From Promethearchaeota archaeon Loki_b31 (GTDB lineage: Archaea > Asgardarchaeota > Lokiarchaeia > Sigyniarchaeales > SOKP01), in assembly GCA_005222975.1 (NCBI GenBank), contig NJBI01000012.1, positions 1 to 62,594 of the forward strand: 62,594 nt of DNA. Reading direction: 5' to 3'. A model generated the notes under the pieces. The model did not search any database and was not told the DNA's origin. It saw only the letters and a list, made by a program, of their open reading frames with translations. A program made the translations under genes and the position numbers. This document shows, in pieces, positions 16,950 through 57,056 of this stretch (positions are counted from its first letter, which is position 1; each line of letters begins with the position of its first letter).

Positions 16950-17747
16950 TTATTTTAATTTAACTATATCAGCCGTCTTATATAAATACATGAAATAAAA
17001 ATTGCTAGCTGGTCCAAAAGCGATATGATCGGCCATAACGCCAAAATAAGATAATTTTTTAAAAATGTCTTGAGTCAAAATTATAAAGGCATCTTCCCCT
17101 TCGTCCATTACCACGCTAGTCCCAAAAACTTGATCACGGGAACGGATTTCAGCGATTTGAGCGTATTTTTCGAGGATTTCTTTAAATTTTTTGTCCTTTA
17201 CTATTACTTCTTCGACTAATAATCTAATATCTGTGACTCCTCGAGCTCTTGCTTTTTTTATTTCCTCGTAAAACACATCTAAAAATTCGTAATCTTGTGC
17301 GACAAAGTATAGTGCCATTTTTGCTGTATTTATTAAAGTTAAAGCTCTATTAATACAAACATCTCTTCCCCGGTGAACATATAAGGCAACTTTTATCGGT
17401 GTATCGTGAGATTCGTAAATGGGGGTAAGCTCACGAATAATTGCGTCTGAATACCTGTCAAAATTATCGCTGTATTGTTTCTTTGCGATTACCAAAGCTT
17501 CATCAGGGCTTTTTGCAAAATATCTTGACGGTCTTGATTCTTCCTCTTTTAAAATCCACATTTTATCTTTTTCTAATTGAGTTAAAATGTTATAAATTCG
17601 AGAATATGGAACTCTTGAGGCTTCAGAAAGCTCTCTCGCGTCCATAGGTCCTTTTGAAATTAAAGTTAAATATATTGATATCTCGTAATCCGTTAAACCA
17701 ATCGAACGTAGAGATTCTTTAACATTCTCGGGAGTTTCTTTTGACAT
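16950..17747 (-). CDS. TrmB-family transcriptional regulator
   Basis: GLTDYE..IY..L and VPYSRIY..L winged-HTH, plus a C-terminal effector domain. Confidence 0.9.
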   Translation of the reverse strand: MSKETPENVKESLRSIGLTDYEISIYLTLISKGPMDARELSEASRVPYSRIYNILTQLEKDKMWILKEEESRPSRYFAKSPDEALVIAKKQYSDNFDRYSDAIIRELTPIYESHDTPIKVALYVHRGRDVCINRALTLINTAKMALYFVAQDYEFLDVFYEEIKKARARGVTDIRLLVEEVIVKDKKFKEILEKYAQIAEIRSRDQVFGTSVVMDEGEDAFIILTQDIFKKLSYFGVMADHIAFGPASNFYFMYLYKTADIVKLK

Positions 17748-17868
17748 TTTTTACACCATTAAACAAAATCGTGTAATTTAAGAGGTTTTAGGCACTTATA
17801 AGAATTTTGTTAATTAATAAATTAATAAATATTTCATACTATTTCATACTATATTATTTTTTTTCTTT

Positions 17869-17930
17869 TTACCCTTGCGGGGTAAGTCGTTTTACGACTA
17901 AAATTTTCTCGTAAAAGTCATTCTTTATCG
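17869..17930 (-). promoter_or_regulatory. Putative eukaryote-like SECIS element of the 17931..18122 ORF
   Basis: Minus strand reads AUGA-C-UUUUACGA-GAAAAUUUUAG-UCGUAAAA-C-GA-C then UUACCC-CGCAA-GGGUAA. It begins right after the TAA and has the same layout as the two selD SECIS elements. Confidence 0.8.
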
Positions 17931-18122
17931 TTATATTAGGTTTAAAATAGTTTCTTGATAAATAATAGCTGAGCAAGGTCAGATTCCTCCGTTGTTATCT
18001 TGGGGGATGAAATTAATGACTGCTACAGAGATGATAGTAGCAAAAGTAATAACCAGTGCTATGATAATAAGAGCAATGAATATTTTTTTATTTCTTTCAT
18101 TTTCAAGGAATTTTAAATGCAT
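17931..18122 (-). CDS. Candidate small single-pass membrane selenoprotein (63 aa, U48-P-C50); not in the ORF track
   Basis: MHLKFLENERNKKIFIALIIIALVITFATIISVAVINFIPQDNNGGI-U-PCSAIIYQETILNLI*. In-frame TGA at 17981-17979, SD-like GTGTGAT upstream of the ATG, SECIS directly after the TAA. Confidence 0.78.
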
Positions 18123-18278
18123 TTTTATCACACTTATATTATTTTAATTAAGAAAATTTTTATTAATTTGGATTTAAAAAATTTTTACAAATTCAATTCT
18201 TAAGTAAAATTTTAAATTCATATATATCTCATTATTTAATATTCTTTTTATAAAATTAAGTGGGAATTATGAGTCAAA

Positions 18279-19829
18279 ATGTTGGAAAAAAAAAGTTTAA
18301 TAGTAATAGGGGCAGGTGCGACAGGTTTGAGTGCTGCTATAATATGGGCACTTAATCATGATACTAAAGCGCATCCAGTTCTTCTTATTGAAAAAGAACC
18401 TAAGGTTGGCGGATTTGTTACGTCATATGAAAGAGAAGGGTTTGTATTTGATACGTGTCAAATGTTACCAAATATTTCTGAAATTCTTGAATATCTGGGC
18501 GTTGAGATTGAGCTTAAAAAGTTTAAAGGCTATTACATGAGAATATTTGTTGTCAATCCTGAGACAAAAGAGATTAAAGTGCTTGAGTTACCAACAGGGG
18601 TGGACAAATTTAAACAGAATCTAATTGAAAAATATCCAAATAATGCAGAACAAATTACTAAATTTATAGACCATGCACGTGCGATGTATTTAGAACTATT
18701 TAATTTAAAGGTTGAACCTACTTTTTTCGAAATTTTAAAGTTGTTATTTACTTGTCCAAAAATCATTAAAAATGCTTCAAAAACATTTAAAGAATATTTT
18801 GGAAAGTTTAGAATCACTGAGCCAGAAGTGATTGAAATTTTTAATGTATTTGCTGATTTTAGTGCTCTACCAGCAGAACAAGTTACAGCTTTAGTTCCCC
18901 TAGCAGCAATGAATTCATTATTGGATGGTGCCTATCGAACGAAATTAGGTTTTATTGACTTTTCTAACAAACTCCAAGAAAGATTTTTGAGTTTAGGAGG
19001 TGAACTTAAGCTAAGTAGTGAAGTTGAGAATATTTTAGTAGAAAACAATCAGGTCAAAGGTGTGCGTCTTAAAGGAGGAGAAGAAACCTACGCAGATTAT
19101 GTAATTACCACCGTAGACACAATGTTAGCTATGAAAAAATTAGTTGGGTTAGGAAAAATTCGCAAGGCAAATAAAAAATATGCCGATAAAATTGAGTCCA
19201 TAAAAATGTCTACATCTTCGTTTAATGTAAGCTTGGGATTAGATGATAAACTTGACCTAGCTACTTTAGGTATGGATTGTGGTTATAATGTCATTACTAC
19301 AGGAGGAGATACATATGACAGATTATTCGACGCATACGAGAAAGGAGAGATCGGTTTTTCTGAAAAAAGATTTCATATCGGAGTAATTTGTCCTTCACTT
19401 ACTACAGGAGGGCAACCGAATATCACGATCCGAGTAACACCTATGGCTCTCGCAGATTGGAGAGAATTACGGGAAAGCAATAAAGATGAATATGAAAAAA
19501 GAAAAGAAAAATGGGGCAATTTTTTTATAGGCATTGTTGAGAAATATCTTATTCCAGATCTCAGGAAACATATTCTTATTACAGATATTTCTACACCAGC
19601 AACTTACGCTCGTTATTCTAATTCTCCTACGGGTTCTATCTTTGATATGGCGCCCACTACAAATAATTTTGGTCGTACTCGTTTAAAGATAAGAACTCCA
19701 ATCAAGGGTTTATTCCAACCGAAATTTGTACACGGAGTGTTTGGTTCTTTATTAGGTGGTATGCAGGCAGTAGATATGATACTTAACAGAAAAATAATGA
19801 ATGGTAACGCTCGTTTAAAACTCAATTAA
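18279..19829 (+). CDS. Phytoene desaturase-like FAD-dependent oxidoreductase
   Basis: IGAGATGLSAA, EKEPKVGG, TPATYARY..SPTGS. Confidence 0.85.
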   Translation: MLEKKSLIVIGAGATGLSAAIIWALNHDTKAHPVLLIEKEPKVGGFVTSYEREGFVFDTCQMLPNISEILEYLGVEIELKKFKGYYMRIFVVNPETKEIKVLELPTGVDKFKQNLIEKYPNNAEQITKFIDHARAMYLELFNLKVEPTFFEILKLLFTCPKIIKNASKTFKEYFGKFRITEPEVIEIFNVFADFSALPAEQVTALVPLAAMNSLLDGAYRTKLGFIDFSNKLQERFLSLGGELKLSSEVENILVENNQVKGVRLKGGEETYADYVITTVDTMLAMKKLVGLGKIRKANKKYADKIESIKMSTSSFNVSLGLDDKLDLATLGMDCGYNVITTGGDTYDRLFDAYEKGEIGFSEKRFHIGVICPSLTTGGQPNITIRVTPMALADWRELRESNKDEYEKRKEKWGNFFIGIVEKYLIPDLRKHILITDISTPATYARYSNSPTGSIFDMAPTTNNFGRTRLKIRTPIKGLFQPKFVHGVFGSLLGGMQAVDMILNRKIMNGNARLKLN

Positions 19830-55456: not shown

Positions 55457-55531
55457 AGATGTCACCTTACGGGTGAAAACTCAATAAGCACTTCACAATC
55501 CAAGTGTTTTTTGCTTATATCAAAGACATCT
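55457..55531 (-). promoter_or_regulatory. SECIS element of the selD at 55532..56560
   Basis: Minus strand: AGAUGUC-UUUGA-U-AUAAGCA-AAAAA-CAC..GUG-AAG-UGCUUAU-U-GA-G-UUUU-CACC-CGUAA-GGUG-ACAUCU, starting right after the TAG. Confidence 0.85.
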
Positions 55532-56985: not shown

Positions 56986-57056
56986 CGATACCGTCTTGCG
57001 ATGGAACTCTCAATAAGCGCTCACATATAGTGTTTTAGCTTATTTCATTGACATCG
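56986..57056 (-). promoter_or_regulatory. SECIS element of the selD at 57057..58094
   Basis: Minus strand: CGAUGUC-A-AUGA-A-AUAAGC-U-AAAA-CAC-UAUAU-GUG-AGC-GCUUAU-U-GA-G-AGUU-CCAUC-GCAA-GACGG-UAUCG, starting right after the TAA. Confidence 0.88.

Follow-up and report, generated by a model that had tools for sequence, protein, structure and literature searches.

A candidate family of small single-pass membrane selenoproteins in Lokiarchaeia, with a type I SECIS element downstream of the gene

We analysed a stretch of 62,594 nucleotides (nt) from Promethearchaeota archaeon Loki_b31 (contig NJBI01000012.1 of assembly GCA_005222975.1), referred to here as the window. It forms one contig (C34) of a 3.5-Mb metagenome-assembled genome (MAG; G000) with 31.5% G+C and 92% completeness; related genomes are filed under Promethearchaeota/Promethearchaeia, earlier named Lokiarchaeota. 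In the apparent gap between a trmB gene and a desaturase-like gene, an original prediction had placed a hidden minus-strand open reading frame (ORF) in which an in-frame UGA would encode selenocysteine (Sec, U), served by a Sec insertion sequence (SECIS) of its own, and had proposed it as a candidate new Asgard selenoprotein family. That proposal is upheld by an invariant UGA, the identity of the SECIS and the spread of the family. Together with the gene itself, these lead us to give a probability of roughly 0.85 that the ORF belongs to a new family of small single-pass membrane selenoproteins.

An invariant in-frame UGA in a family of small membrane peptides

The predicted gene and its parts, including a Shine-Dalgarno (SD)-like motif and a transmembrane (TM) helix, are as follows.

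17931..18122, minus strand: predicted selenoprotein coding sequence of 63 amino acids (aa), start ATG 18122-18120, stop TAA 17933-17931
17979..17981, minus strand: predicted Sec codon UGA, residue 48, motif G-G-I-U-P-C, the sole in-frame TGA of the ORF
18127..18133, minus strand: SD-like GTGTGAT, 4 nt upstream of the ATG
18008..18097, minus strand: predicted TM helix, about residues 9-38, with a basic N-terminal segment before it (from AlphaFold2 and from hydropathy and charge counts over 69 sequences)
17934..17978, minus strand: post-Sec tail P-C-S-A-I-I-Y-Q-E-T-I-L-N-L-I, with Cys at +2 and then a weakly conserved hydrophobic helix

In order of translation the product would begin with a basic N-terminus, continue through an extended hydrophobic segment to N-G-G-I-U-P-C and end in a hydrophobic tail of 13 residues, with Sec as the 16th residue counted from the C-terminus (residue 48 of 63). 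The frame from ATG 18122 to TAA 17931, its in-frame TGA and the SD-like GTGTGAT (18133-18127) were found as originally described, and our 63-aa translation was identical letter for letter. Purine-rich GGT/AGG motifs resembling this SD-like sequence lie upstream of the ORF in most homologues. The Cys two residues from the TGA was likewise confirmed; both Sec-containing selD genes of the window (U18 and U21) also have U-x-C, in each case within G-U-x-C-K.

With the single sequence as query, a six-frame search of 24 genomes of the genus detected homologues in about 20, and every homologue had exactly one in-frame TGA. Two profile searches recovered the family in 38/41 and 37/41 genomes of the genus and in 91 of the 134 genomes of the taxonomic family. 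Beyond the taxonomic family a single homologue was convincing (...D-D-G-G-G-G-U-G-C...); its genome belongs to a different family within the class. The 69 distinct peptides recovered are 45-110 aa long and share a basic N-terminus, one TM helix, an acidic linker, G-G-G-U-x-C and a variable tail. All 69 keep TGA at the Sec column and none has TAA or TAG there, while their true stops vary among TAA, TAG and TGA. This column was the only invariant one in alignments of 20 and of 59 sequences, at identities down to about 20%, and the Gly residues just before it were nearly invariant in the 20-sequence alignment. A second, diverged copy was seen in another genus (L180; G088:C1:239267-239371, minus strand), with a basic N-terminus, a TM helix and A-C-P-P-U (C-x-x-U).

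A family-profile search of 1.84 billion representative proteins gave 20 matches, of which 19 end exactly one position before Sec; these 19 are gene calls truncated at the TGA. The remaining match is an unrelated repeat protein. The 47-aa product of the window, cut at the TGA, is present in NCBI, IMG and Logan, in each case nameless. Searches of Pfam, NCBIfam and PDB sequences returned generic single-TM noise only and no known family. We know of no cultured organism with a member.

A type I SECIS element downstream of the ORF

Three features lie past the stop codon.

17887..17921, minus strand: SECIS core, with AUGA, a non-Watson-Crick position followed by an 8-bp helix, an 11-nt A-rich apical loop ending in AG, and GA
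17871..17883, minus strand: second small hairpin, with the sequence ACCC-CGCAA-GGGU, immediately 3' of the SECIS (96% pairing over 20 homologues)
17884..17925, minus strand: possible 3-bp helix I closing the kink-turn, AAG 17925-17923 with CUU 17886-17884, bulge A-A-U

The AUGA (17921-17918) starts nine bases past the stop codon and 60 nt past the Sec UGA. A perfect 8-bp stem is formed by UUUUACGA (17916-17909) and UCGUAAAA (17897-17890), which enclose an 11-nt apical loop, GAAAAUUUUAG (17908-17898). C 17917 stands opposite C 17889 as one C/C helix position, followed by GA 17888-17887 and C 17886. The hairpin was thus found just as first described, from its AUGA-C, perfect stem and A-rich loop to the C-GA-C and the CGCAA hairpin behind it. 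The further claim that it has the same layout as the SECIS elements of the window's selD genes held in part: the two kinds have in common a kink-turn core, a run of unpaired A and an additional hairpin on the 3' side, but both selD elements are type II (a 6-7 bp helix with a CAC/GUG ministem) and the candidate is type I.

We searched the genome with a strict pattern for the type I SECIS of Lokiarchaeia (lokiSECIS), namely AUGA, a 9-position helix, an 11-nt loop A-rich at its start and with G at its end, and GA/AA. It matched 13 times in 3.5 Mb, compared with 1-4 times in shuffled sequence. Five of the 13 matches lie just past Sec genes of the VhuD-like (four) and VhuU-like kinds, and one is the candidate. 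Another SECIS-like pattern (locus L035, C46:32388, plus strand), about 110 nt past an ORF ending ...P-D-V-G-C and TGA-TGA, was set aside as probably due to chance, since the covariance model described next gave no match there.

This model (R1) was trained only on the four VhuD and one VhuU SECIS of the same genome, with the candidate excluded. It gave the candidate (17881-17927) 49.3 bits, with a genome-wide E of 2.9e-6, and one of its own training members 49.2 bits; over the whole genome it had 7 matches in all. The original prediction had called for covariance scoring with Loki selD elements; scored with this VhuD/VhuU model, the hairpin is accepted. The candidate also shows every type I feature set out by Mariotti 2016 (PMC4989117): the AUGA/GA core, the 9-position helix and the 11-nt loop with A-rich first five bases and final AG. 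Rfam found no match to its SECIS family in the window. In the same paper, the archaeal, eukaryotic and bacterial SECIS models are described as giving no significant match on Loki selenoprotein genes. The hairpin belongs to type I, as do the VhuD/VhuU elements.

The element is conserved with the gene. Every one of the 62 homologue loci searched had an R1-positive SECIS on the correct strand, downstream of the ORF. AUGA and GA were invariant in 20/20 aligned homologues, with the loop consensus [GA]AAAA...AG, and the geometry of 9-position helix and 11-nt loop recurred in most of the 69. Compensatory double changes were observed in 8/8 stem pairs, with 97.3% of alignment cells paired; with the partner strand slid, 37-60% were paired, and 0/500 shuffles scored as high as the observed value. 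A structure-blind MAFFT alignment still gave double changes in 4/8 pairs and likewise supported the second hairpin. The 3-bp helix I would close a standard kink-turn, which we put forward tentatively: 86% of its cells were paired, and AU-to-GC double changes occurred at two pairs, in a single lineage only.

Although the tail varies in length, members of the genus keep the AUGA 51-60 nt from the Sec UGA. At five loci (L023, L025, L026, L097 and L100) the UGA that truly ends the gene coincides with that of the AUGA core in the SECIS, so that two UGAs stand 56-59 nt apart, one read as Sec and the other as stop. Only the first would be recoded because the SECIS would be folded with the ribosome at the Sec codon and necessarily melted once it reached the second UGA.

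The sequence past the UGA and the points that weigh against Sec

If the UGA is read through, the residues beyond it should bear some mark of selection. In 65 of the 69 members there is a Cys no more than four residues away from Sec, at +2 in 41 and at +4 in 13, the remainder having it at -2/-3/-4 or at +1/+3, which gives the arrangements U-x-C, U-x-x-x-C, C-x-U and C-x-x-U. Past the UGA both codons, TGT and TGC, are used for this Cys, and there is conservation at aromatic/His and Leu positions as well. Constraint on the tail is evidently loose: in one genus it is missing, and the proteins stop at G-G-G-U-C or G-G-G-U-G.

Several results tell against a selenoprotein and should be weighed with the rest. 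The coding signal past the UGA is weak: the ratio of nonsynonymous to synonymous differences (pN/pS) was 0.67 there and 0.80 just before it, and there was no third-position excess (82/81/73 differences). Frame 0 stays open for a median of 17 codons past the UGA and frame +2 for 25, a comparison that is uninformative because the DNA is AT-rich. Four of the 69 members have no Cys near Sec; because of these, a selenenylsulfide is not universal in the family. No tRNA for Sec scored above the Rfam cut-off in the MAG, which is 92% complete. No conserved gene neighbour hinting at a pathway was found in the loci examined, 37 of them from the same genus and 32 from other genera. Finally, the original prediction had proposed looking for homologues with Cys in place of Sec, and none was found, either among the 1.84 billion representatives or in 400 genomes of the phylum. 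The absence of any Cys homologue is unusual among selenoproteins.

Two proteins of other Asgard families, L178 (G242) and L181 (G194), have a basic N-terminus, one TM helix and Cys-rich repeats (G-C-C-T-S-C-G-T-S-C...) without Sec. They were considered as Cys homologues and rejected as architectural look-alikes, homology not being demonstrable.

Topology and proposed mechanism

We counted charged residues on either side of the TM helix in the 69 sequences. The 15 residues before it held 278 Lys/Arg and the 15 after it only 10, together with 113 Asp/Glu, and the N-terminal flank had more Lys/Arg than the C-terminal one in 68/69. The linker behind the helix is acidic and 7-30 residues long. By the positive-inside rule Sec is predicted to lie outside the cell, in support of the outward-facing U-P-C motif that had been suggested. 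Signal-peptide or pilin-type processing was considered and rejected: the hydrophobic stretch measures 19-24 residues and has no conserved cleavage motif, and is therefore treated as an anchor.

AlphaFold2, run with the family alignment, predicted a helix at residues 9-38, an unstructured loop at 39-49 that contains Sec, and a second helix at 50-62. Mean confidence (predicted local distance difference test, pLDDT) was 73, reaching 88-92 in the core of helix 9-38; it was low in the loop and in helix 50-62.

We propose the following mechanism. A ribosome arriving at UGA-48 would be directed by the type I lokiSECIS in the 3' untranslated region, 60 nt downstream, to insert Sec without terminating, and would then translate 15 further codons up to the TAA. 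The product would have a basic cytoplasmic N-terminus, one TM helix, a short acidic linker and, at its end, a brief hydrophobic tail under little constraint. Its flexible G-G-G-U-x-C loop would carry a membrane-tethered selenol on the outer side of the membrane, and the Sec/Cys pair could act on an extracytoplasmic substrate or partner, for example a peroxide, a disulfide or a polysulfide. That Sec and the nearby Cys constitute a membrane-anchored selenol/selenenylsulfide redox pair is a realistic, still tentative assignment; in broader terms the function is probably redox at the outer membrane surface. As no family member with Cys in place of Sec was found, selenium would be essential to such a role. 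Where the original prediction spoke of a single-pass membrane redox selenoprotein, the membrane peptide, its Sec and its SECIS are supported, and the redox role is one that we infer.

Alternative explanations

The alternative that survives best leaves the Sec peptide as it is and gives it another task, with the G-G-G-U-x-C loop as a site for binding and handing off a soft metal, metalloid or chalcogen (Ni, Cu, Hg, As, or selenium/sulfur itself) in an accessory of a transporter. A Sec/Cys pair on a flexible Gly loop by the membrane does resemble metal-handling Cys/Sec motifs, and bacterial selenoproteins of the MerT family and of the SAO system have been described (bioRxiv 10.1101/2022.07.06.499078). 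The nearest look-alike in Pfam is PF12669, which 5/59 members matched at E of about 0.1-0.2, over the TM helix and G-G-G-G-U-G-C, and other Asgard genomes encode proteins of the same layout, with a TM helix and a Cys-rich tail. However, the PF12669 score of 12.5 bits is far under the cut-off of 27, the gene has no conserved transporter or metal gene next to it, and Sec stands alone in the four members that have no Cys near it. We regard this alternative as unlikely.

A second possibility is that the gene reports on selenium status. The full-length protein would be made when selenium is ample and a 47-aa peptide ending in Gly-Gly-(Gly/Ile) when it is scarce, and the ratio of the two products, or the behaviour of the ribosome at the UGA, would regulate a target such as trmB, 180 nt downstream. 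Strict conservation of Sec with no Cys form fits such a device, as does a tail that is weakly constrained and absent in one genus, and the gene stands directly upstream of this transcription regulator in all 37 same-genus loci. The linkage to trmB is, however, absent in 32/32 loci of other genera, and a conserved AT-rich region between the SECIS and the trmB start looks like a promoter belonging to trmB itself. Moreover, a sensor of the leader-peptide kind needs neither a conserved TM helix nor a Cys beside Sec. As a main explanation, a leader peptide or attenuator for trmB was rejected, since the linkage is limited to one genus, and the wider notion of a status device seems quite improbable to us.

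Still less probable is that UGA-48 is an ordinary stop, so that the gene makes a 47-aa membrane peptide and the hairpin is a kink-turn or terminator unrelated to Sec. Gene callers and public databases carry the 47-aa product only, and the codon-level signal past the UGA is weak, as described above. An ordinary stop would nevertheless be expected to change between TAA, TAG and TGA over time, as has happened to the true stops of the family, whereas here it is TGA throughout. The hairpin, moreover, cannot be told from VhuD/VhuU SECIS elements by the covariance model and keeps a fixed distance to the UGA, and the Cys just past the UGA is conserved with synonymous codon changes. As for a chance ORF in an AT-rich spacer, suggested by its short length and by the lack of a database family, conservation effectively refutes it, the profile finding the same architecture in about 100 genomes at identities down to about 20-30%.

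Other selenoprotein genes and the Sec machinery of the genome

The preferred reading, a Sec-containing membrane peptide, concerns a genome that has further Sec genes. SepSecS is present (383 bits), as are Sec-containing VhuD and VhuU with SECIS elements. In most SECIS of this genome (those of the two SelD, of VhuD and VhuU and of the new genes) a small G+C-rich hairpin follows within a few bases of the 3' GA. Such hairpins lie on the minus strand of the window at 17871-17883, 55457-55531 and 56986-57056, and elsewhere in the genome at C17:22759, C23:2979, C61:149552, C87:124931 and C90:9319; their loops are often GNRA-like or CGCAA. The extra hairpin shows some covariation in the new family, and candidate roles are a substitute for helix I, a protein site or a terminator. 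It is not mentioned in the available portions of the lokiSECIS papers PMC4989117 and PMC11227280.

The same SECIS scan found two other small selenoprotein candidates, both conserved and unannotated. The first (C28:15537-15743, plus strand; loci L034/L152) is a 69-aa zinc-ribbon ORF with C-P-F-C ... C-Q-N-C and four in-frame TGAs, in the motif ...H-G-U-x-U-V-[LI]-C-x-Y-G-x-x-P-U.... Conservation extends to 9 of 42 genomes of the genus, eight with all four TGAs and one match with three, and a SECIS with compensatory changes lies about 20 nt past its stop. We regard it as a candidate multi-Sec selenoprotein. The second (C87:30877-30987, plus strand; loci L036/L161) is a 37-aa zinc-ribbon peptide ending ...T-L-R-F-K-U, present in 33/42 genomes of the genus. 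Its TGA was directly followed by TAA/TAG in all 12 loci inspected, and a SECIS about 45 nt downstream (R1 41 bits) shows covariation and the extra hairpin. This peptide is a candidate selenoprotein with a C-terminal Sec.

Gene neighbours

The genes on either side are those named at the outset.

16950..17747, minus strand: TrmB-family regulator (Pfam TrmB, E 9e-17), same strand, downstream of the ORF; a functional partnership is improbable
18279..19829, plus strand: FAD-dependent amine-oxidase/phytoene-desaturase-like protein, divergent neighbour

In other genera, where trmB was adjacent in none of the 32 loci, the neighbours vary and include an ARMT1-like phosphatase, a 335-aa membrane protein and RHH/PIN proteins. 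The gap between the SECIS and trmB (17812-17850, minus strand) holds a tandem pair of AGTATGAAAT and two copies of a TTATTAAT-type repeat, conserved in the closest relatives; these repeats are possibly a promoter or operator of trmB.

Comparison with known systems

The original prediction had noted a loose likeness in architecture to eukaryotic SELENOK/SELENOS. This class is set by its architecture: an N-terminal TM helix, a Gly/Pro/positive-rich segment and Sec second or third from the C-terminus (PMC10650576). The new family shares the N-terminal single TM helix and has a Gly run directly before Sec. Sec that is penultimate or third from the end, as in U-C, U-G, U-G-C and U-P-G, occurs in a few members from other genera only, and the window protein is not among them. 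In SELENOS a selenenylsulfide joins Cys174 and Sec188, according to PMC3628699, and the nearby Cys of the new family could form such a bond. The linker, however, is short and acidic with a Gly run of 3-5, unlike the long disordered Gly/Pro/basic domain of SELENOK/S, and the C-terminal flanks are dominated by acidic residues (113, against 10 basic). The two also have opposite topologies, the C-terminus being predicted outside in the new family and lying in the cytosol in SELENOK/S, and Cys forms exist there whereas none was found here. Nor was there sequence similarity: the SelK/SelS families of Pfam were not listed for any of the 59 members at E up to 10.

Thus the N-terminal TM helix and Gly run of the proposed likeness stood, and its linker, Sec position, topology and sequence did not. 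The likeness is architectural, and membership in the SELENOK/S class is not supported. Huang 2024 (PMC11227280) reports no eukaryote-specific selenoprotein family detectable in Asgard archaea. There is a slim chance, on analogy, that the family is an archaeal counterpart of the SELENOK/SELENOS class; if it were, a eukaryote-type membrane selenoprotein would already have been present in the Asgard lineage. The echo in architecture makes an archaeal-to-eukaryotic history of membrane selenoproteins testable.

PF12669, the FeoB-associated Cys-rich membrane protein, is alike in being small, with an N-terminal TM helix and a Gly/Cys-rich motif. It differs in having Cys in place of Sec, the best score of the new family against it has an E of 0.18, and no feoB gene was found among the neighbours examined.

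The closest match for the SECIS is the type I element of Lokiarchaeia HdrA-VhuD, VhuU and PrxL, as described in PMC4989117 and PMC11227280, with which the candidate agrees in core, helix, loop and position in the 3' untranslated region. It differs from these in serving a gene of a family not previously known as a selenoprotein, in that several homologues use the UGA of the AUGA core as their own stop, and in the extra small G+C hairpin that follows. The fixed 51-60 nt spacing, together with stops inside the SECIS core, would show how the Asgard machinery separates a Sec UGA from a stop UGA.

Among known archaeal selenoproteins (SelD, FrhA/VhuU, FrhD/VhuD, HdrA, FdhA, PrxL, AhpF-N-like, DsbA-like and others), SelD, VhuD and VhuU stand alongside the new family in a Sec-using Asgard lineage, and it has the same SECIS type as VhuD/VhuU. 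All the known families are soluble, as enzymes or as subunits of them, have known folds and also occur with Cys, whereas the new family is a membrane peptide for which neither a fold family nor a Cys form was found. Huang 2024, which took known families as the basis of a homology search through more than 400 Asgard genomes, gives seven Asgard families (PMC11227280), a 2026 review counts 11 archaeal families (PMC13188914), and the SECIS-based scan of Mariotti gave no new family in the two metagenomes to which it was applied (PMC4989117). No small membrane peptide is among the families given in these three sources, which bears out the original remark that known archaeal selenoproteins include none of this kind. 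The new family would be the twelfth in archaea, the first to be membrane-anchored, the first small peptide and one with no Cys form, which implies a chemistry that sulfur cannot replace, at a predicted extracellular selenium site of an anaerobic Asgard archaeon. The 11 known families were found by homology, and surveys by homology only, like standard gene callers, miss genes such as this one; scanning Asgard genomes for the SECIS first reveals further hidden small selenoproteins, with the candidates on C28 and C87 as examples.

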